Source of the DNA: a virus | Taxonomy: Duplodnaviria; Heunggongvirae; Uroviricota; Caudoviricetes | DNA length: 13,009 bases | Direction: 5' to 3' (one strand) | Virus record (IMG/VR): IMGVR_UViG_2619619134_000011 | Shown: positions 868 to 13,009 of the stretch, one piece after another | Layout: each line of letters opens with the position of its first letter | How positions within the stretch are numbered: the stretch's first letter is position 1 | Made by a program: the position numbers and the translations under genes | Notes under the pieces: model-generated | What the model was told of the DNA's origin: nothing | Database searches by the model: none | What the model saw: the letters and a program-made list of their open reading frames with translations, nothing else

Positions 868-1149
868 TTACCGCCGCAACCGCTCCGGCTTCTTCCAGTG
901 GTACGTGATTTTCTCCTTCTCCCGATACAGTTCAACGCGGCGATTGTAGGCCAGCATTTCCAGAACGCGGATCCGTATATCGCGCATATCCGCATCATTA
1001 AGCTGGATACCATCACGGCGCATCACCTCAGCAACAACACGCGCATAATTTTCAGCGGTCACGCTGTCCGGCTGCGTGGTCTGTTCGTCAGCCTGCTGGC
1101 TGATTCCAGAGACGCGGCGGATTAATCGCAGTATTTCGGCTTCTGTCAT
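868..1149 (-). CDS. Hypothetical protein (93 aa), last gene of the packaging operon
   Basis: ORF begins 13 nt after the terL stop, with a GAGG Shine-Dalgarno about 10 nt upstream of its ATG. I recognise no motif. Coding status inferred from operon context only. Confidence 0.45.
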   Translation of the reverse strand: MTEAEILRLIRRVSGISQQADEQTTQPDSVTAENYARVVAEVMRRDGIQLNDADMRDIRIRVLEMLAYNRRVELYREKEKITYHWKKPERLRR

Positions 1150-1162
1150 GCTGCTGACCTCA

Positions 1163-2824
1163 TTACACCCCGCTAAATTCTTCCAGTTTCTGGCGGTGGC
1201 TGTCGCTTATATCAAAAGCAAAATCCTCATGCTCTGCCTGGAATGTACCAAACGCCATCAGCGCCGCCACGCTCGGGTCTATCTTGTTCGGTGATTTTTT
1301 CTTGTTCGGCTTGATATTGGCGTTCGCGTCACTCTGCATCACGACGTTACTCATCGACCAGGACAACACCGGATCGCCACGATGCACAATCACCCTGCGG
1401 TTAACAAAAACTTCGAACGATTTCGCCGCCGGACTGAATCTGAGGTAGGTTTGCGGGAACGGCTCCACCTCAAAACCTGCCCCCTGTAATTGCGTTCTGA
1501 GATGCGTGGCGTTCCACGTATCAAAGCCCACCAGCCTGATATGAAATTTCTCCGCGTCCTGCATGATGTCATCTCTGATCCGGTCGTAATCAATGCAGTC
1601 GCCAGGCGTTGTGCGTATCCAGCCCGCTTTAGCCCACTGACGATAGACAGCGCGGTTTTTATTGGCGGGGTTCTGTAGCTGGAACTCCGGCAGATAATGA
1701 CGGGAAATCAGCATAATGGTTTTACCGACCGGAAAGGCATAGCATACGCTGGAAATATCGCTGGTTGATGATAAATCCAGCCCCGCGTAACACTCCTGGC
1801 CGTGTAAATCTTCCTCCGTGAACGTTCCGGCACACTCAGCCCATGCGCCGTTACCCATCCACGGGGTAGCCCCCTGGCACCAGATATTAAATCGCTTTGT
1901 CATCATCTCCACCCACTGCGACGGTATTCCCCGCGCTTTCTGGATGGTTGAGGCCAGTTTTTCACGATCGACGGAAACATCGATATTGGGATTCGCCTTT
2001 ATCCACATCGCCGGATCGTCAACCTCGCTTTCATCATCCAGCTCGTAAATCAGCACGAACATGGATTCGTTCACCTCTTCACCATCCAGTATCTGGCAGC
2101 AATAGTCGTAGTGTTGTTTACAGGCTGAAACAACGTTGCTCCCCGATGTGGTGATGGCAAATAACAGCCCCTCCGGACGCGCCCCCATTCCCAGTTCAAG
2201 CGCGGAATAAACCCCGTTGTCAGGGTGCAGGTGATATTCATCCACAATGGCAAGACTCGGGTTTGTGCCCTCGATGGTTGCCGCTTTTGCTGCCAGCGGC
2301 TTTAACAGGCTGTTGCTTTTCGGGTGCATCACCTTGTGGGCCTGAATATTCACCCGCCTGCGTAACGGTCGGGATAAAAGGCACATCTGACGCGCATCAT
2401 CAAAAACGATCCGCGCCTGGTCACGGCTCACCGCTGCGGTGTAAATATCCTGCTGCCCGTTCTCCATAATCAGAAACCAGTTAGCCAGAATCGCGGCGGT
2501 CGTGGATTTCGCATTTTTGCGTGGCACTTCGATAAAGGCGCTCGTGTATTTGCGCCGTCCGGTGGCCTTAACCTTAAAGCCGAGGATGCACGCAAAGGCG
2601 AACTGCTGCCACGGCTCCAGCTCAATGGGTCTGCCACGCATCGGCCCTTTTACGTGCGGACACACCCTGGAAAAGGCAATAAACCGCTCCACAACCTCAC
2701 GATCGAACGTGTAAAGGGGGCTTTCAAGGTCCGAAAAGTACCGTTTAACGGCCTGTTTCAGCCGTTTACAGGCCGGAATTTTGCCCGTTTTTACGTCTTC
2801 TGCGTACTTATTCCAGGCGGTCAA
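1163..2824 (-). CDS. terL: Terminase large subunit (HK97-like family)
   Basis: 553-aa ORF overlapping the terS stop by 17 nt. N-terminal P-loop-like segment (PRKNAKST) and the length and layout of phage large terminases, directly downstream of HNH and TerS. Family assignment is by recognition, not by search. Confidence 0.85.
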   Translation of the reverse strand: MTAWNKYAEDVKTGKIPACKRLKQAVKRYFSDLESPLYTFDREVVERFIAFSRVCPHVKGPMRGRPIELEPWQQFAFACILGFKVKATGRRKYTSAFIEVPRKNAKSTTAAILANWFLIMENGQQDIYTAAVSRDQARIVFDDARQMCLLSRPLRRRVNIQAHKVMHPKSNSLLKPLAAKAATIEGTNPSLAIVDEYHLHPDNGVYSALELGMGARPEGLLFAITTSGSNVVSACKQHYDYCCQILDGEEVNESMFVLIYELDDESEVDDPAMWIKANPNIDVSVDREKLASTIQKARGIPSQWVEMMTKRFNIWCQGATPWMGNGAWAECAGTFTEEDLHGQECYAGLDLSSTSDISSVCYAFPVGKTIMLISRHYLPEFQLQNPANKNRAVYRQWAKAGWIRTTPGDCIDYDRIRDDIMQDAEKFHIRLVGFDTWNATHLRTQLQGAGFEVEPFPQTYLRFSPAAKSFEVFVNRRVIVHRGDPVLSWSMSNVVMQSDANANIKPNKKKSPNKIDPSVAALMAFGTFQAEHEDFAFDISDSHRQKLEEFSGV

Positions 2825-3164
2825 GCTCGTCCTCTTCTTCTGTTTCCGGTGGATTTTTACGGCGGCTTATCGGGTCAAAACCGAGCAAGGAGGCCATTTT
2901 TATCATCACTCTTTCAGCGTCGGATTTTGCGCTTAATGCGGGGTTTCTGCTCTCGCCGCCCTGACTGTTAACAATGCTGAACCCGCGCGCCGCAAGGTCT
3001 GCAACGGCTTTCCGGTAAATGGAGTAGTTGACACAATACAGTTCCAGATTACTCCAGTCGGCGGGGGTAAGGTCTCCCCGTTCCGCAAGCTGCCGCGATT
3101 TTCCCCGCCACTGCTTCACGGCGATATCATCCAGGTAGGCGGGGGCTTTCGGTGGTCTTGCCAT
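2808..3164 (-). CDS. terS: Terminase small subunit (P27-like family)
   Basis: 118-aa ORF directly upstream of and overlapping terL. Size, acidic C-terminus and position fit a small terminase. No clear Shine-Dalgarno; the upstream region is AT-rich. Confidence 0.7.
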   Translation of the reverse strand: MARPPKAPAYLDDIAVKQWRGKSRQLAERGDLTPADWSNLELYCVNYSIYRKAVADLAARGFSIVNSQGGESRNPALSAKSDAERVMIKMASLLGFDPISRRKNPPETEEEDELDRLE

Positions 3165-3277: not shown

Positions 3278-3454
3278 ATACAGCCTCATCAGCGATTGCG
3301 GAAACATTCCATAACCTCGCGGTCACGGTCGGTTAATCGCTTCGCTGTGATGCGTTCTGCGCGTCCTGACGCTTTATCTTTATGCCCTGTTTCCTGTGTC
3401 TTCCATGCGTCACGCTGCCTTATAAGTCCACGGATAAGGCGGTTTTGTTCCCGC

Positions 3455-3895
3455 TCATTCATCAGCGTCATACATCCAGTTATTGCGGTTAGCGGCCCGT
3501 TCTTCCTCCTCACGGAATCCGCCAGCGGCACGCTTGCTTTTTGTTGCCGGATCAAGCCACTTCGTTTTCTGGTTATGACACGCCTGGCACAATGGCTGAT
3601 GGTTCCATTCGGGCCAGAAGAGAACATCATCACCGCCATTAATCGGGATAATGTGATCCACCACCACGGCGGGCGTATATATCCCCTTCTCAAGGCATCG
3701 CACGCATAACGGGTTTTTACTCAGATACATGGCGCGGTATTTGTCCCACTGTCTGGAGTACCCACGCGCGCGGCGGTGTCCTCGTCTGGCATCCTCTGCA
3801 CGCCATGCCGCCCGCCTGTGCTCCTCACACTTGCCGGACTTCACGCGCCTGTTACAGCCTGGTTCTGTGCATCGTCTTAATGGTTGCCACGGCAT
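3455..3895 (-). CDS. HNH endonuclease (terminase-associated)
   Basis: 146 aa with N-terminal Cys pairs (CTEPGC, KCEEH) and an HNH core (VVDHIIP ... NHQPLCQACHNQKT). Its start overlaps the stop of the upstream connector gene as ATGA. It lies immediately upstream of terS-terL, as HNH does in HK97-like packaging modules. Confidence 0.85.
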   Translation of the reverse strand: MPWQPLRRCTEPGCNRRVKSGKCEEHRRAAWRAEDARRGHRRARGYSRQWDKYRAMYLSKNPLCVRCLEKGIYTPAVVVDHIIPINGGDDVLFWPEWNHQPLCQACHNQKTKWLDPATKSKRAAGGFREEEERAANRNNWMYDADE

Positions 3896-4191
3896 CAGTA
3901 CACCCCCACATCACGGTAAGCCGTCCAGAGTGCGCCTATCGTCATGGGTACGCGTGTTTTTGCGTTATCCGCGACAATCTGGCGATTTTCATACAGGTGA
4001 GCGATAAACATCATGCAGCCAATCTTTATGGCTGGCGTGAACGCCAGCCCGTCATCAAAGCGCCTGCCTATATGTATCTGGCACGCCTCAAGCGATGCGG
4101 CAATGTATCCGCTGATTAACTGGTCTTCCTCGTCGCCATCGATGCGGCAATGGAGTTTCACTTCTTCCAGGGTGATAAGTTCTTCTGTCAT
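3895..4191 (-). CDS. Head-tail connector protein (gp6-like)
   Basis: 98 aa with the N-terminal ITLEEVKLHCRIDGDEEDQLISGYIAA pattern typical of gp6-like connector proteins. Overlaps the upstream gene by 4 nt. Confidence 0.65.
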   Translation of the reverse strand: MTEELITLEEVKLHCRIDGDEEDQLISGYIAASLEACQIHIGRRFDDGLAFTPAIKIGCMMFIAHLYENRQIVADNAKTRVPMTIGALWTAYRDVGVY

Positions 4192-4526
4192 TTTTCCGCG
4201 CCCTCACGACAAAGAATTTCAAGGCGTGTCCTGGCGGCATCCGGCAGCGGCTGCCCGATGATATTCAGTACACGCCCCGCCAGCGGCCCCGTATTGACCT
4301 TTACCCGGCTGGTGGCGTTGATGTCCTTCCTGTAGCGTATCCATATCCTTACCGTTCCAGTCGCCAGTTCTGCACCCGATGAAATGGCCTCCTTGCTGCT
4401 GATCATGTTCACGCTTGCCCAGAGTGTGTGACCGTCCACCCACGTTTCGAGTATTTCGCCGGTTATATCCCTGGTCTGTTTCAGGGTCTGAATCGTTACC
4501 CTGTCACGCAGTCGCCCTATGTTCAT
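4188..4526 (-). CDS. Head-tail joining / head closure protein
   Basis: Track ORF 4188-4568 trimmed to the ATG at 4526, which overlaps the portal stop as ATGA. The protein (MNIGRLRDRVTIQ ... GEILETWVD ... WASV) resembles phage head-tail joining proteins. Confidence 0.65.
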   Translation of the reverse strand: MNIGRLRDRVTIQTLKQTRDITGEILETWVDGHTLWASVNMISSKEAISSGAELATGTVRIWIRYRKDINATSRVKVNTGPLAGRVLNIIGQPLPDAARTRLEILCREGAEK

Positions 4527-5734
4527 TCCGGTTTTTCTCCCTCGCTGATTTTTACTTCCTGTTTCCATGCCTGGCTGAACTCATCACCACCATCACGCGG
4601 GGACAGCCCTTCACGTTCGCGGGCTTCGTTCGGGCACATAACGCCGGATTTGATGCCGCGTTCATAGGTGGCAAAGCGTTCGCCAGGAGTGGCCCGTAAC
4701 AGGTCCGCGCTGTCAAACTCCACCTGATACCGGATACCAGGTACAGGTGAGGCCACCAGCAGGGCTTTTTTTATCTGCTGCTCAAAGTTCGCCAGCCACG
4801 GACGCATCGTCATGGTGAGAAATGCGCGGCTTGCCTCGCTGAAATTGCTGTAGGTGCTGTTGCTGTATTCCTGCAAAAAAATCGGCGAGACGTTGAACAT
4901 TCGGGCGATGTCTTCAATGGTGAAGCGACGGGAGGCCAGCCATTCAGCATCCTGATTACTCATGCCCAGCTGCTGATAGCTCATACCCCCTTCAAGGATG
5001 GGCGTTTTTCCGGCGTTTCTGGCCCCTTTGTAGCGTTCCAGTGCGGCTAATGCCTGTTTGCCCTTCACGCCGTCCAGCCATTCGCCTGACGTGATAACCC
5101 CTGCCGCCATCATGCCATCACGCATCACGCTCGCGCCGTGGCGTTGTTGGGCCAGCCCAAGCCCCAGCGATTCGCGGCAGATGGTTACAGGTGAGCGCCC
5201 CATAAAACCGTCATCCGTGGAGTAACGAAGGTGGAGAACCTCCCACGGTAAATAGTTGCGGGTGTTTCCGGTGTAGGCGTCAGTGATGCAGTAGCGCCAG
5301 TTATGCTCACCTGTCTGCTCCACGTTCACCGACTGCGGCGGGTAAGGATGCAAAGCCACCGGAAAACCATCACGCCCCCACTGAATCACCGCATAAGCAT
5401 TACCGTTTAACAGGCAGTGGCGGATCATCATTCGCTTAAACTGGTAGGGGGTTTGCCATGCGTTCGGGCGCTCGTTGAGGATGTGATCGACCGGATGAGA
5501 ATCAAGCCACTCTCGGGCCTCCTTCCCCTTCTCATTGCGTACCAGGTACAGGTAACACGGCATGGTAGCCACCGCCTCAGAGATGACCGTGACGGCGTTC
5601 ATGACGGCGGGCAGTGATTCCGCTGTCCCCGATGATACGTACTCACCCGCCCCCGTGTTCGATGTGCCAGCCAGCGCCATAAACTCATCAAGCGTCATGC
5701 TGCGCTGCTCTTTTTTTCTTCTGAAAGGCCACAT
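4523..5734 (-). CDS. Portal protein (HK97 family)
   Basis: 403-aa ORF starting 1 nt after the protease stop, with a GGGGGTG Shine-Dalgarno upstream. Size and position between protease and head-completion genes fit a portal. Family assignment by recognition. Confidence 0.8.
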   Translation of the reverse strand: MWPFRRKKEQRSMTLDEFMALAGTSNTGAGEYVSSGTAESLPAVMNAVTVISEAVATMPCYLYLVRNEKGKEAREWLDSHPVDHILNERPNAWQTPYQFKRMMIRHCLLNGNAYAVIQWGRDGFPVALHPYPPQSVNVEQTGEHNWRYCITDAYTGNTRNYLPWEVLHLRYSTDDGFMGRSPVTICRESLGLGLAQQRHGASVMRDGMMAAGVITSGEWLDGVKGKQALAALERYKGARNAGKTPILEGGMSYQQLGMSNQDAEWLASRRFTIEDIARMFNVSPIFLQEYSNSTYSNFSEASRAFLTMTMRPWLANFEQQIKKALLVASPVPGIRYQVEFDSADLLRATPGERFATYERGIKSGVMCPNEAREREGLSPRDGGDEFSQAWKQEVKISEGEKPE

Positions 5735-5735
5735 A

Positions 5736-6308
5736 TCACACCCCCGCTAAATCCGCCCACCAGCGGCGATTATCCGCACGCGGCATTTTTTCGGGGTGCT
5801 GCTCGTACAGGGAGCGGCGGGCCAGCTCCACGCCGGAATCAGGGTAAGCCGGTACGGATGTAACGGTAATTTCGTATAGTTCCGCCACCAGCACGGTGCG
5901 CACGCATGGATCTGTTGTGGTATCCCATACATCCTTACGGGAACGAAAGCCAAAGCTCATGCCGGATATATCACCTCGTTTAACCAGTTCGATAACGTCG
6001 CGCCCTGTACTGGTATCCGGTGGGGTCAGTTCAAAGCGTAACCCTGTTTCGTCCTCTTCCAGTTTCAGCGTGCCGGAACGGGTGCGCCCCAGTAACATGC
6101 TGTGGTCATGCTCATACAGGCCGCGAACGTCATTACCCGCCGCAAGCCACTCAGTAAACGCCCCCCGCTGGAATTTTTCGTAAAACTCCCCCCATAGCAG
6201 TTCTGAAAGCTTATCCCAGCGAACAACGTAGCCCGTCAGCGTACCGGCTCCGCTGGTAGTGATTTCCGATGACCGGATTTCCATACTCTTCATAATTTTT
6301 TCACCCAT
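5736..6308 (-). CDS. Prohead maturation protease (HK97 family)
   Basis: 190 aa with a His-containing segment (EHDHSMLLGRT) and a Ser motif (GDISGMSFGF) matching the catalytic residues of HK97-type prohead proteases. The start is uncertain: ATG at 6308, 6293 or 6284. Confidence 0.8.
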   Translation of the reverse strand: MGEKIMKSMEIRSSEITTSGAGTLTGYVVRWDKLSELLWGEFYEKFQRGAFTEWLAAGNDVRGLYEHDHSMLLGRTRSGTLKLEEDETGLRFELTPPDTSTGRDVIELVKRGDISGMSFGFRSRKDVWDTTTDPCVRTVLVAELYEITVTSVPAYPDSGVELARRSLYEQHPEKMPRADNRRWWADLAGV

Positions 6309-6317
6309 AAAACACTA

Positions 6318-6337
6318 AAGGGGCTTTTAAGCCCCTT
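6318..6337 (-). terminator. Intra-operon hairpin between capsid and protease genes (possible attenuator)
   Basis: On the minus strand AAGGGGC-UUAAAA-GCCCCUU (7-bp stem), followed by UAGUGUUUUAUGG, sits between the capsid stop (6348) and the protease start (6308). Confidence 0.3.
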
Positions 6338-6347
6338 CTGTATGCTG

Positions 6348-7505
6348 TTAATCGTCGTCCTGTGGCAGTTCCAGAATCTTGATCGCGTTCGAATCCACCA
6401 CGCCACCGCCTAAATATTTCTGCGTGAAAATTTTGATGAAGCCCGGCTCTGTGAGGTTGTCCGGTCTGGTGCGAACACCTGTTTCGTGATCAACAATGTA
6501 GTAACCGCGTTTGAAGTCACCCAGGGCAATAACGTTATCAGGCATAAACTCCAGATATTCGACCGGAAGGCCCAGCAACGTATCAGGATCACCCGCCTGT
6601 AAACGGTCGCGCCAGATGTAATCACCGTTCGCGTTCTTCACCTTCTGAAGTTTTGCCGCCGTCGTGGAGTTAACCACCCAGACCGCGTTTTTGCGGTATT
6701 TTTTACGTAATGCAAATTTCAGATCGATCAGCGGGTCCGCAGATGTCCACGCCAGAGATTCGGAAGGTTTAATTACCTGCAACGTACCAAAATCACGCTC
6801 TTTGTCGTTCTTCTCTGCACGGGGTACGGATAAAAAACCTTTTGCTTTTTTGTCACCGTCGCCCACAACCAGATCGCTTTCTTCGGTTTCCGTGAAGGTG
6901 TCGCCAATCTCACCCGTCAGCCATGAAAGGATGTCCACATCGGAAAAATCCACGATTTCCTGTGTGGTGCGCGGGTACGCATAGACCGGATACAGCTTAA
7001 TGCTCACCTCGTTAATCTGCGGGGTGCTGGTCTGTTCGCGTGTCTTACCCTCTTCACCGTGGTTAACGGTCGCACCGCCAGCGGAAACAAGCTGCTTAAA
7101 CTCGTTGCTGCTGATTTTCTTCACGGTACAGATGCGGCGCATGGTGGATTCATCCGTCAGCATTCGCATGATTTCGGTGTTCAGTTCGGGGATAACGGTA
7201 TAACCACCATCAGCGGGAACGCCTGTACTTAATGCGCGGGTTTCACCTGTCAGAATGTAGTTGCGTAGTTCTGCGGGGTCAGTGGTCTGGCTGCTTTTAC
7301 CTGGCTTGCTGCGCTCTTCGTCTGCAATGGCTTCAAGGCGGGAAATGTCTTTATCGAGGGATTCAGCTTTAGCGCGTAATTCGTCAAATTTTGCGCCCTC
7401 AGCATCGTTAAGACTGCGGTTTTCTTTTTCCGCGTTCTCCAGCATGTCGCGCATCTGATTTTTAATGGCGGTTTTCTGCTGGCGTAATTCGATTATTCTC
7501 GGCAT
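6348..7505 (-). CDS. Major capsid protein (HK97 fold) with N-terminal scaffold-like domain
   Basis: The track ORF starts at a GTG (7553); I prefer the in-frame ATG at 7505, which has AGGA 8 nt upstream, giving 385 aa. The first ~100 residues are coiled-coil-like and E/K/L-rich, consistent with a fused delta domain and with no separate scaffold gene. Confidence 0.85.
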   Translation of the reverse strand: MPRIIELRQQKTAIKNQMRDMLENAEKENRSLNDAEGAKFDELRAKAESLDKDISRLEAIADEERSKPGKSSQTTDPAELRNYILTGETRALSTGVPADGGYTVIPELNTEIMRMLTDESTMRRICTVKKISSNEFKQLVSAGGATVNHGEEGKTREQTSTPQINEVSIKLYPVYAYPRTTQEIVDFSDVDILSWLTGEIGDTFTETEESDLVVGDGDKKAKGFLSVPRAEKNDKERDFGTLQVIKPSESLAWTSADPLIDLKFALRKKYRKNAVWVVNSTTAAKLQKVKNANGDYIWRDRLQAGDPDTLLGLPVEYLEFMPDNVIALGDFKRGYYIVDHETGVRTRPDNLTEPGFIKIFTQKYLGGGVVDSNAIKILELPQDDD

Positions 7506-7754: not shown

Positions 7755-7786
7755 AAAACATGACAAAAAGCCGGATTGCTCCGGCT
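7755..7786 (-). terminator. Rho-independent terminator ending the replication-side operon
   Basis: On the minus strand AGCCGGA-GCAA-UCCGGCU (7-bp stem, 4-nt loop) is followed by UUUUGUCAUGUUUUG, immediately after the stop of the 7793-8107 gene. Confidence 0.6.
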
Positions 7787-9049: not shown

Positions 9050-10804
9050 TTATAAAAACGCGTCGCAATCGTCTGTTGTTATTGCGTTAGTCTGCGTTAC
9101 TCCCTTAACTTTCCGCGTAATATATTCATGTCCGTAAACTTTCGCGGCTGGCTTCATAGCCTTGCCAAAGTCATTTACGTTTAGCGGTTTGCTCCTGCCT
9201 GCGTACGCCATAAACGCCAGATAGACGCGGTAAAGGCTGTTTCTGGTCGTGTACTTCACTGAATCGCCACCGCCGCCCATCATCAGGCCGCGTGCTTCCT
9301 CCAGAAAATTCAGGAACTGGCAAAACTCAATAACCGGATCCGTCTGTTGCTTTATTGCCAGTGCTTCATCACCGTCACGCTGTTCAATGAGTAAAGCCCG
9401 TGCCTTTTCAGGGTCGGCAAAGTTCGCCAGCAAGCGGCGGATAATCACAGGGATTTCAGCCGCGATCTTTTCCGGTAGCTCCCTGTCTTTTTCTGCCTCG
9501 CTTACGATGTTATCGAACCGGAATATCACCCGACGACGTGCCACACCTCCGGCCCGTTCGGTGAATATCATCGGATTGTTATTGGTTGCCAGCACCACCG
9601 CCCTGATTACCGCCGTAAAACGCTTTTCATATTTCGGGTTAATTTCCACGGGGTCGCCGCCCGTGATTTTCTTGATGCCCGTTCCTTCGCCTGTATATTT
9701 CGGCTGGTCTGCCAGGACGATAAGACGACTCCCGACAACCTGCGCACGCCCACCAGCATCATCAAGCGATGTCATTTCAGCGCTTACCGTGTTCTGTTTC
9801 CCTGCCAGAAGGCTGGCTATGTGTGTGAATGTACTTTTACCGCTCCCGCCGTCTCCGGTGGCCTCAATAAACATCTGCCAGTCGTACCGGTTCGCCATAA
9901 TCATGTACAGCGCGGCACATATACGCATCATCTTGCGCGGGTCTTTTCCGGCTGCGTGCTCAAGCCATTTATGAAAGTTTGGCGCGTTATCGCGGATGTT
10001 CTCCCCTGGTGCTGGTGGCGTGTACTCAATGCCGTTGTGCGTGGTGATCCAGTTCTCCGGCGTGTGCGGGGAAAATTCCCCCGTTTTCAGGTCAAGCGCA
10101 CCATTGGCGAACGGCAGCAAATCGCCGGACGGCTCGCCCATTGGTTCGGCAATAACTTTTAACGCTTCCACGGCGTTATTGATTACGCGCTTGCTGAAAG
10201 TGGCCCTGTGCTCTGAATAGATCGCCACCATTTCGCGGCTAAGTTCCATTGTGCTGACCGGACACCATACCCCGCCGCGCCATACGTGAACGATTTCACT
10301 TTCAGGATGTACGCAAACGCCATCAAAGCGATCGGCAAGCAGCTGCGCGCGCTCACTGTCCGCCATCTGCGAAAGTTGCGCCTTTTGCTTTACCGGAAGC
10401 TCAATGACCAGACCATCAGAAAGATTCTGGCGCTCACGGGCCAGATATTCGCGCCAGTTCTCCACCTTCTGACCGTGCATACCCTCAGGATAAAAATTTG
10501 CATCCTGTACGCCTGCCGCCGCCAGCTTCTGGCCAATCGCCTTTATCATTACTGGCGCAAGATATCCGGCCCTGAATATGCGCACGGATTTTCTGCCTTC
10601 CGGCACAATTTGCAGCTTATCCAGTTCTGATAACTGCTGCTCCCCAAGCCACACAGGAGGCTCATTATCTCCGGCCATACGCGCATCATGTTCCTGCCAT
10701 TGTTTCGCGTGTGCCCAGGCATCACTACCCGCAAAAATAATGACTTCTGTTCCTTTGTGTTTTATGCCGCGTGACTGCTGTTTTACGTTCGGTGCCAGTT
10801 TCAT
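9050..10804 (-). CDS. DNA primase/helicase (P4 alpha-like, D5/SF3 NTPase)
   Basis: 584 aa with Walker A GDGGSGKST and a following hydrophobic-D Walker B-like segment (RLIVLAD). Its start overlaps the upstream ORF stop as ATGA. Typical satellite replication gene next to its origin. Confidence 0.8.
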   Translation of the reverse strand: MKLAPNVKQQSRGIKHKGTEVIIFAGSDAWAHAKQWQEHDARMAGDNEPPVWLGEQQLSELDKLQIVPEGRKSVRIFRAGYLAPVMIKAIGQKLAAAGVQDANFYPEGMHGQKVENWREYLARERQNLSDGLVIELPVKQKAQLSQMADSERAQLLADRFDGVCVHPESEIVHVWRGGVWCPVSTMELSREMVAIYSEHRATFSKRVINNAVEALKVIAEPMGEPSGDLLPFANGALDLKTGEFSPHTPENWITTHNGIEYTPPAPGENIRDNAPNFHKWLEHAAGKDPRKMMRICAALYMIMANRYDWQMFIEATGDGGSGKSTFTHIASLLAGKQNTVSAEMTSLDDAGGRAQVVGSRLIVLADQPKYTGEGTGIKKITGGDPVEINPKYEKRFTAVIRAVVLATNNNPMIFTERAGGVARRRVIFRFDNIVSEAEKDRELPEKIAAEIPVIIRRLLANFADPEKARALLIEQRDGDEALAIKQQTDPVIEFCQFLNFLEEARGLMMGGGGDSVKYTTRNSLYRVYLAFMAYAGRSKPLNVNDFGKAMKPAAKVYGHEYITRKVKGVTQTNAITTDDCDAFL

Positions 10805-11100
10805 TTTTTACCCCTGAATCCTTTAATCATGGTTTTCATCTTCTGAATATTGGCGCGTGCTTTCTCCCTGCTGGTGGGCACGTTACGCGGTACGGCCTGC
10901 ACAAGAGAAAAATCACGGTCGAACTGATAAACAGGCATCACGCAATCATATTCGTAACCTTCACGGCGGTAAGTTACGCACCGTCCCGCCACGCCCTTAA
11001 TCATTACCGTGCCGCCGTACTGGTCGCGGTAAATATCACCGCGCGTAAATTTAGGGTGAGTGTTGCCACTGGCAGTTAAGCCAGAATATTTAAGTTTCAT
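10801..11100 (-). CDS. Hypothetical protein (99 aa)
   Basis: ORF with GGAG upstream of the ATG, translationally coupled to primase. Basic C-terminus. No recognised motif. Confidence 0.5.
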   Translation of the reverse strand: MKLKYSGLTASGNTHPKFTRGDIYRDQYGGTVMIKGVAGRCVTYRREGYEYDCVMPVYQFDRDFSLVQAVPRNVPTSREKARANIQKMKTMIKGFRGKK

Positions 11101-11105
11101 TATTT

Positions 11106-11339
11106 TTATTCTCCGGTGTGCTGTTCTTTATATCTGTCGTGCAATAGATCTATTTCTTGCAGTTCCATTATTACAGGCTCAAGAAGCGTTATTAATGCCG
11201 TGGCAATTCTTGATTTTTGTTTGTCGCGTTCATTGTCGCCAAGTGTTTCAAGCCATATGCGCAATATTTCCAGCATGTTTTCACTGTGAGAAAGTGCAAG
11301 AAATGCGCGGTCTATTGTTTGGTGGTAAATATCACGCAT
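11106..11339 (-). CDS. Hypothetical protein (77 aa)
   Basis: Tightly packed ORF in the same operon, with a G-rich Shine-Dalgarno-like sequence upstream. No recognised motif. Confidence 0.45.
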   Translation of the reverse strand: MRDIYHQTIDRAFLALSHSENMLEILRIWLETLGDNERDKQKSRIATALITLLEPVIMELQEIDLLHDRYKEQHTGE

Positions 11340-11340
11340 A

Positions 11341-11562
11341 TTAATCCCCGTCCGTCGTTTTTCTTAAAATAACCTCTGTCACGAAATCAGCATAATCGGC
11401 GGCGATATTCAGTACATCAATCCCCGTTGATTTATATTCTCTCGTGGAAAGTAAGAAAAAAGCCGCTCTAATAAGCTCTGGCATTGACGAAAGCGCATCA
11501 GCCGCATCATCAGGAACGCCGGAAAATTCCTGTTTCAGGGAATTAAAACGATCATCACGCAT
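11341..11562 (-). CDS. Hypothetical protein (73 aa)
   Basis: ATG at 11562 preceded by AGGGGGG; overlaps the stop of the upstream gene by 8 nt. No recognised motif. Confidence 0.5.
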   Translation of the reverse strand: MRDDRFNSLKQEFSGVPDDAADALSSMPELIRAAFFLLSTREYKSTGIDVLNIAADYADFVTEVILRKTTDGD

Positions 11563-12799: not shown

Positions 12800-13009
12800 T
12801 TACACTGCCTTACCTGAATTAATGCGATCCCGGCTTTTAACCCATTCCATAACCTCGGACAGCAGCCACCCTACAGAACGACCGCCCAGATTAAGACGTG
12901 ACGGAAAGCGCCCTTTTTTCTCCAGTTCGTAACGTGTAGTGCGGCACACTCCAGTTAACTTACGACATTCATCCTCACGGATTACGCGATCTTCATTTAT
13001 TTCACGCAT
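12800..13009 (-). CDS. alpA: AlpA-family transcriptional regulator / excisionase-like protein
   Basis: 69 aa with the HTH segment CRKLTGVCRTTRYELEKKGRFPSRLNLGGRSVGWLLSEVMEWV, characteristic of AlpA-family proteins. The ATG is the last three bases of the window, so the upstream region (and any integrase) is outside it. Confidence 0.8.
   Translation of the reverse strand: MREINEDRVIREDECRKLTGVCRTTRYELEKKGRFPSRLNLGGRSVGWLLSEVMEWVKSRDRINSGKAV

Follow-up and report, generated by a model that had tools for sequence, protein, structure and literature searches.

The closest described system to the DNA analysed here is EcCIEDL933, an island whose own genes specify the capsid, portal, connectors and terminase, the helper phage contributing nothing but tails (Alqurainy et al., bioRxiv 10.1101/2022.09.08.507074). 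He et al. (bioRxiv 10.1101/2025.02.11.637232) report that the particles set free by such capsid-forming PICIs (cf-PICIs) are DNA-filled capsids without tails, which externally added tails can arm, that EcCIEDL933 capsids accept HK106 tails and reject HK022 tails, and that 0 of the 17 prophages resident in EDL933 supplies a usable tail. They also describe islands with identical packaging modules and differing adaptor/connector genes, Ad1 identities of 61-83% between islands that differ in tail usage, and an exchange in which the adaptor and connector of KpCIDSM30104 were replaced by those of EcCIEDL933 or EcCIGN02175, which changed infectivity with HK022 versus HK106 tails; the EcCIGN02175 pair worked with both tails. 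Classical PICIs, SaPIs and P4 share with the element studied here a backbone of integrase, alpA and primase and a dependence on phages for infectious particles, but they remodel helper capsid proteins, whereas this island has capsid, portal and neck genes of its own and depends on a phage for tails only. As to naming, the cf-PICI papers call PF05521 the 'head-tail adaptor' and PF05135 the 'head-tail connector', whereas in Virfam and PHROGs the former is 'head closure Hc1' and the latter 'adaptor Ad1'; we use Ad1 and Hc1 throughout.

The two families are best understood from phage necks. In SPP1, gp15 (Ad1) binds the portal after packaging, gp16 (Hc1) then closes the channel, and gp17 (Tc1) joins the tail to the connector, a scheme that Virfam Type 1 necks generalise as Ad1, Hc1 and Tc1, their genes usually being arranged as Ad1-Hc1-Ne1-Tc1. 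In the virion of lambda, gpU, the tail terminator, touches only the stopper gpFII, at the central hairpin and C-terminal loop of gpFII, while the gpFII N-terminal helix holds the adaptor. Given homology to SPP1 gp15/gp16 and to the lambda neck, only Hc1 should contact the tail. For the cf-PICI neck itself, we found no structure, the published cryo-EM being of the icosahedral shell only.

The window, by which we mean the whole 13,009-nucleotide stretch that was analysed, is most of a cf-PICI of the EcCIEDL933 type. All of its substantial genes lie on the minus strand, and the features run as follows.

12800-13009, minus strand: AlpA-like regulator
Between the AlpA-like gene and the DUF4222 gene, minus strand: small genes without known function and a repressor/Icd-like ORF
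10801-11100, minus strand: DUF4222 protein
9050-10804, minus strand: D5_N/DUF5906 primase, 584 aa
8076-8486, minus strand: SSB
Between SSB and the capsid genes, minus strand: PerC-like regulator
6348-7505, minus strand: HK97-fold major capsid protein (MCP), 385 aa counted from its annotated start, with a longer mechanical ORF reaching 7553, PF05065 at 208 bits
5736-6308, minus strand: prohead protease, 190 aa, PF04586 at 163 bits
4523-5734, minus strand: portal, 403 aa, binding partner of Ad1, PF04860 at 305 bits
4188-4526, minus strand: Hc1 head-closure/stopper protein, 112 aa, PF05521, PHROG 25
3895-4191, minus strand: Ad1 gp6-like adaptor, 98 aa, PF05135, PHROG 40
3900-4556, no strand assigned: recombination cassette that diverges from the IAI39 sister island, from 60-nt sliding identity
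3455-3895, minus strand: HNH endonuclease, 146 aa, downstream flank of the variable cassette, PF01844, PHROG 144
2808-3164, minus strand: small terminase (TerS), P27 family, 118 aa, PF05119 at 81.6 bits
1163-2824, minus strand: large terminase (TerL), 553 aa, TTG start, PF03354 and PF20441
868-1149, minus strand: conserved ORF, 93 aa

All eight cf-PICI packaging genes are present, in the Proteobacterial cf-PICI order capsid-protease-portal-Hc1-Ad1-HNH-TerS-TerL that is also the operon order of EcCIEDL933, and the regulation and replication modules are represented by the AlpA-like gene and the primase. The neck genes are tightly packed, with ATGA stop/start overlaps between portal and Hc1 and between Hc1 and Ad1, and a TGATG overlap between Ad1 and HNH. 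Published cf-PICIs measure about 10-18 kb; the window spans 13 kb without an integrase, which lies just beyond the window limit in every relative examined, and the island of the closest relative measures ~15.4 kb. In that closest genome clpS borders the island on one side, the other side carries the integrase and then yljB/cspD, and tail genes are absent. Searches for Rfam families and tRNAs recovered none in the window, and Rfam, tRNA and promoter/terminator scans of 3895-4526 gave no RNA element or convincing promoter or terminator signal. We did observe a weak 6-pair hairpin at 4034-4016, one of a set of terminator-like matches that numbered 20 against 14.5 ± 4 expected, not a clear excess.

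The original prediction held that the element has no tail genes of its own, and this was borne out both inside and outside the window. No window ORF matched a tail or lysis family in Pfam or PHROG, as is the case for EcCIEDL933, which likewise lacks tail and lysis genes, and none of the 15 related loci examined has tail genes next to the island, so that tail genes just outside the window, named beforehand as evidence that would count against the proposal, are absent from the flanks of these related islands. Across the 15 loci the island extends from the integrase to TerL and the 93-aa ORF, and in 13 of them core chromosomal genes adjoin it (clpS/cspD, phoQ, pntB-mdtJI). The remaining two consist of a locus (L014) with chromosomal fis and dusB at its low-coordinate side, the other end of the retrieved stretch still lying within the island, and a locus (L013) in which the island's neighbour is a separate prophage. 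The identical Hc1 protein was found in 257 blocks of the assembly collection, and the six Hc1 contexts listed all run from integrase to TerL and the 93-aa ORF and then into core genes on the mdtJI side, carrying three distinct replicase types; the identical primase was found in 1400 assembly blocks, with an island context as for Hc1.

These contexts also bear on whether the window could be the remnant of an HK97-like prophage whose tail genes were deleted, in which the pair would be ordinary head-completion genes without any role in hijacking. All the structural proteins do come from common phage families, but the intact ~15 kb gene set recurs at no fewer than three chromosomal sites between integrase and core genes, and the window aligns to E. 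coli chromosomes at ~97% identity, with at least 80% of its length covered in 123 complete genomes. The PICI hallmarks alpA, primase and PerC are present, the order capsid-protease-portal-Hc1-Ad1-HNH-TerS-TerL differs from that of phages, and the near-identical island is mobile in the published experiments. Given the recurrent intact island, the PICI hallmarks and the non-phage gene order, we rejected the defective-prophage explanation, to which we give almost no credence.

How close the window stands to EcCIEDL933 was gauged from the O157:H7 ATCC 43894 island, a stand-in for EcCIEDL933 that we assume to be representative. The packaging proteins of this island are 93-100% identical to those of the window (MCP 100%, TerL 99.6%, portal 99.3%, Ad1 99%, Hc1 92.9%), with 8 of the 112 Hc1 residues differing from the tested O157 allele. 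The two islands differ in their replication genes, a DUF927 protein in O157 versus the D5_N/DUF5906 primase of 584 aa in the window, and in integration site, the O157:H7 island adjoining phoQ and the island of the window's closest relative lying at clpS/cspD. At 93-100% protein identity, the window's island would be expected to build its own small capsids, to package its own DNA and to become infectious only with phage tails.

The role of the neck pair in transfer and tail choice is thus already known for a near-identical island, and the window is another allele of a characterised system; a companion preprint relates that the same idea was reached by an AI system. It had been proposed from the window that the pair determines which helper tails are usable and that swapping it between islands while measuring transfer would reveal this. 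That swap is already published for this satellite family (He et al.) and switched HK106/HK022 usage, which supports the proposal. It also speaks, if indirectly, against the pair being dispensable, since which tails worked depended on where the pair came from. The companion suggestion of comparing the pair with proteins of co-resident prophages fared less well, in that these are not necessarily the right comparators: none of the 17 prophages of EDL933 supplies a compatible tail, and tails can be acquired outside the cell. What our comparisons add is an argument that tail matching probably falls to Hc1 and is not shared equally by both proteins.

The pair itself was correctly identified. Both minus-strand ORFs are present at 3895-4526 with exactly the coordinates predicted, and Pfam and PHROG place them in the connector and head-closure families. 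Hc1 scored 84.5 bits against PF05521 Phage_HCP (cutoff 25) over residues 1-109 and matched PHROG 25 'head closure Hc1' at E 7e-35; it is identical to PDB 2KZ4 at 106 of 112 residues, and its family profile matches SPP1 gp16 (2KCA, 5A20/5A21, 7Z4W) at E 2e-5. A longer reading of Hc1 with 126 aa, from the mechanical ORF start at 4568, was dropped in favour of the 112-aa start at 4526, which was chosen because it gives a full-length Pfam match, equals the 2KZ4 chain and agrees with the RefSeq annotation of relatives. Ad1 scored 45 bits against PF05135 Phage_connect_1 (cutoff 21.2) and matched PHROG 40 'head-tail adaptor Ad1' at E 5e-35. A single-sequence PDB search with Ad1 matched no chain, and solved adaptors were reached only by the family profile, whose match to 3JVO arises partly by construction, HK97 gp6 being in the alignment.

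Placed beside the SPP1 gp6-gp15-gp16 connector, window Ad1 and Hc1 fall into the gp15 and gp16 superfamilies, the docked tail protein there being gp17 (PDB 5A20/5A21, 7Z4W), and the proposed likeness extends to sequential portal binding, channel closure by Hc1 and the joining of a separately assembled tail. The systems differ in that one SPP1 genome gives both heads and tails, whereas here the satellite would contribute the head side and a phage the tail side (Ne1, Tc1). Gene order differs as well: the Ad1-Hc1-Ne1-Tc1 order usual for SPP1-type (Virfam Type 1) necks is replaced by portal-Hc1-Ad1-HNH, without Ne1 or Tc1. This inverted Hc1-Ad1 order is the known cf-PICI arrangement and leaves protein-family membership unaffected. 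By homology with SPP1 and lambda, the rings would be stacked as portal-Ad1-Hc1-tail, with Hc1 as the putative channel plug. The original prediction had cast the two proteins together as the docking surfaces for a helper tail; they do complete the satellite portal vertex, but they are not equivalent, and only Hc1 is expected from the SPP1 and lambda homology to face the tail.

We then compared the window with its sister island in IAI39. At the protein level most of the packaging module is nearly invariant (HNH 99, TerS 99, TerL 98, portal 96 and protease 96%), and the two neck proteins drop to 73.5% for Ad1 and 48% for Hc1. The 60-nt sliding DNA profile stays at 100% up to 3899, falls to 62-68% at 3900-4019 (the Ad1 C-terminal part), recovers to 87-93% at 4020-4199 (the Ad1 N-terminal part), falls again to 43-60% at 4200-4556 (Hc1 and the last portal codons) and then returns to 88-98%. 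The edges of this cassette are sharp, at the Ad1 stop and the portal 3' end, and the divergent block (~3900-4556) coincides with the coordinates of the neck pair. In comparisons of close alleles, dN among the structural genes peaks in Hc1 (0.02-0.03), with a dN/dS of 0.2-0.5, an estimate that rests on 5-8 substitutions, versus at most 0.12 for the others. Positive selection on Hc1 was considered and is not demonstrated by a dN/dS below 1 (0.2-0.5); the divergence is suggestive of either relaxed constraint or diversifying pressure.

Because the Ad1 C-terminal part (~3900-4019) diverges together with Hc1, Ad1 may contribute to tail compatibility, at least by fitting its Hc1. A stronger form of this idea is that both proteins jointly and directly fix tail compatibility, the variable C-terminal half of Ad1 either facing the tail or setting the geometry of the Hc1 ring. 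The cassette does span the Ad1 C-terminal half and the whole of Hc1, Ad1 identity is lowered between islands of different tail usage (62-74% here, alongside the range given by He et al.), and the sole experiment exchanged the pair; moving both genes jointly, the swap does not separate the effects of Hc1 and Ad1. However, the adaptor ring makes no tail contact in the SPP1 and lambda necks, satellite Ad1 displays no similarity gradient towards helper Ad1 (18-24% only), and the Ad1 of HK97 and that of HK022 are 100% identical although their Hc1/tail sets are unrelated, so that one Ad1 can serve different tails. On balance we judge a direct joint role unlikely, and favour a tail-matching role seated in Hc1.

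To place Hc1 relative to helper phages, we compared each satellite morphogenetic protein with its HK106 counterpart. Hc1 aligned to HK106 gp7 at 49% over all 112 residues (E 2e-40); the other values were 25% over 73 residues for Ad1, 26% for the portal, 27% for TerL and 38% across 81 residues only for the protease, and BLASTP gave no significant match for MCP. Hc1 is the sole satellite morphogenetic protein that resembles the helper's. Against HK97 and HK106 together, window Hc1 matches gp7 along its entire length at 49-50% identity and shares the C-terminal motif VLNIIG...TRLEILC..GAEK, whereas the rest is remote (Ad1 23-28% to gp6, portal 25-26%, TerL 25-27%, MCP 18% global). Window Hc1 is only 36% identical to HK022 gp9. 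This preference for HK106/HK97 gp7 over HK022 gp9 matches the reported tail choice of EcCIEDL933-type islands.

The same contrast between head and tail sides is seen among the phages. HK106 and HK022 are each 98-100% identical to HK97 over the head side (TerL to Ad1), with HK106 continuing at 91% in Hc1 and 99/94/100% in Ne1/Tc1/major tail protein (MTP), whereas HK022 falls to 26% in Hc1 and 27/20/22% in Ne1/Tc1/MTP. Conversely, Evi, Fraca, phi467, Klebsiella ST147-VIM1phi7.2 and the Evo1 prophage are only 15-39% identical to HK97 on the head side and 59-64% in Hc1, with Ne1/Tc1/MTP mostly at 50-91% (exceptions being Fraca MTP at 33% and phi467 Ne1 at 35%). Across the 21 phage pairs from 7 genomes, which are non-independent and were selected through Hc1 similarity, Hc1 identity correlated with the tail module (Spearman 0.72) and not with the head module (-0.15). 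These phage mosaics, together with the 21-pair correlation, place a module boundary between Ad1 and Hc1, with Hc1 travelling with the tail. In HK022, whose functional Hc1 is gp9, a truncated gp7 of the HK97 type also persists upstream of gp9.

Satellite variants divide along the same line. Ad1 and portal form satellite-only groups, with Ad1 variants 62-99% identical among themselves versus 18-24% to phage Ad1, and portals 79-96% among themselves versus 24-29% to phage portals. Satellite Hc1 variants are 47-63% identical to phage HK97-type Hc1 and 48-72% to each other, and so stand as near to the phage proteins as to one another. Within Hc1, the window and O157 alleles become more like helper Hc1 along the chain, at 33-39% in the N-terminal third and 60-62% in the C-terminal third, and the N-terminal third is likewise the least helper-like part in other satellite variants (31-50%). 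By analogy with lambda, this gradient would fit an N-terminus that grips satellite Ad1 and a remainder that faces the tail. A DNA-level search of E. coli genomes with the HK022 gp9 gene turned up no satellite with an HK022-type Hc1, all 39 of 39 hits lying in prophage context. These 39 hits adjoin a gene of the HK97-gp10 family.

A further explanation sees the divergence of the cassette chiefly as a means of separating satellite assembly from helper assembly, so that neither caps the other's portals, tail matching being a side effect. Satellite Ad1, portal, MCP and TerL are indeed all remote from the helper's (18-27% or undetectable), and He et al. (bioRxiv 10.1101/2025.02.11.637232) emphasise avoidance of cross-interaction between satellite and helper. 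Such separation leaves unexplained why Hc1 alone stays ~50% identical to helper Hc1, why the Hc1 type varies between islands that share a portal and why a swap of the pair switched tails, and we hold it to be very improbable as the main cause.

Taken together, we consider it likely that the pair forms a cf-PICI neck in which Ad1 is fitted to the satellite portal and Hc1 is the tail-docking ring matched to HK97-type tails. In the sequence of events we propose, the satellite terminase would fill the small satellite capsid, Ad1 (3895-4191) would cap the satellite portal, and Hc1 (4188-4526) would bind Ad1 and plug the channel, such that tail-less, DNA-filled capsids stay stable. The Hc1 ring would then meet the Tc1/Ne1 end of a pre-assembled free phage tail with a surface like that of HK97 gp7, and tail range would be set mainly by Hc1 type. 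As its Hc1 is of the HK97-gp7 type, the island should accept HK97/HK106-type tails (Ne1, Tc1, major tail protein) and not HK022-type tails. From sequence comparison, the predicted tail donors are siphophages with HK97-type Ne1/Tc1 and any head type, Klebsiella prophages included (Hc1 54%).

The comparative data suggest that Hc1 alone probably sets specificity. We lean, with some caution, towards the more specific proposal that Hc1 alone, chiefly through its central and C-terminal parts, is a portable tail-compatibility tag that Ad1 merely couples to the satellite portal. The EcCIGN02175 pair accepts both HK022 and HK106 tails, whose Tc1 proteins are ~20% identical, which means that sequence type and tail range do not correspond one to one.

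If Hc1 is such a tag, its type would predict which phage tail modules (Ne1/Tc1) can arm a satellite, even across genera (Klebsiella prophages, for example), and satellite transfer range would become predictable from genomes and retargetable by a single-gene change. The neck pair is the molecular gate of cf-PICI tail arming, and it is the arming of tail-less capsids by tails of different phages that lets cf-PICIs cross between bacterial species; Hc1, as the probable tail-matching part, could help to predict or engineer satellite host range.

In these capsid-forming satellites, one packaging module, its identical head-closure protein (Hc1) included, is paired with three replicases across the related islands (loci L005-L010, L011 and L015-L018 versus window 9050-10804):

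D5_N primase, 584 aa
DUF927 replicase, 710 aa
AAA_25 replicase, 466 aa

Islands carrying this packaging module occupy at least three integration sites (clpS/cspD, phoQ and pntB-mdtJI). The major capsid protein is likewise mosaic between sister islands, as the window copy (6348-7505) and that of sister island L012 (12456-13628) share 69% identity, and the neighbouring protease and portal are 96% identical between the same two islands. Base composition also varies along the window, with G+C of approximately 42% at 1-500 and 11001-11500 versus 50-58% in the rest; the first of these segments is the clpS-side end of the island and found a match in only one complete E. coli genome.

Around the capsid gene, we identified two strong terminator-like hairpins:

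6317-6338, minus strand, just 3' of the capsid gene
7769-7786, minus strand, just 3' of the PerC-like gene

The former could leave the genes that follow, from protease to terminase, expressed at a lower level than the capsid protein, an effect also proposed for the annotated putative terminators of HK97. Two conserved small ORFs with no function assigned lie within the packaging operon or behind it:

3289-3471, minus strand, 60 aa, PHROG 3173, overlapping the 3' end of the HNH gene
868-1149, minus strand, 93 aa, PHROG 1561, following TerL

Most close relatives of this island carry annotations for the two ORFs, although the 60-aa one is uncalled in some (L007, L008, L014 and L017).

In E. coli Evo1 (L013, NZ_CP101915, 1-7271), a prophage with an HK97-type tail and a capsid-forming satellite directly abut one another. 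The large terminase gene of this prophage is annotated as truncated (6021-6764) and adjoins the TerL end of the satellite, and the Hc1 proteins of the two neighbours share 60% identity. This arrangement may represent a satellite that inserted into, or recombined with, a potential tail donor.

Evaluating the satellite gp6-like adaptor (Ad1) against the phage collection, we found that its best ‘phage’ matches were short, satellite-sized records that had been submitted as phages:

LR881103.1, 16.5 kb, vB_KppS-Ant
OR544139.1, 15.3 kb, Pasteurella Pmp8
OR544138.1, 10.7 kb, Pasteurella Pmp7

We interpret these three as probably cf-PICI-like elements that were sequenced from particles. Among the phages, HK022 (L004, 5545-6309) has gp9 as its functional Hc1, but upstream of that gene it retains a small gp8 together with a truncated, 78-aa gp7 of the HK97 type, and this gp7/gp8 remnant is a recombination scar located exactly at the head-tail module boundary between Ad1 and Hc1.
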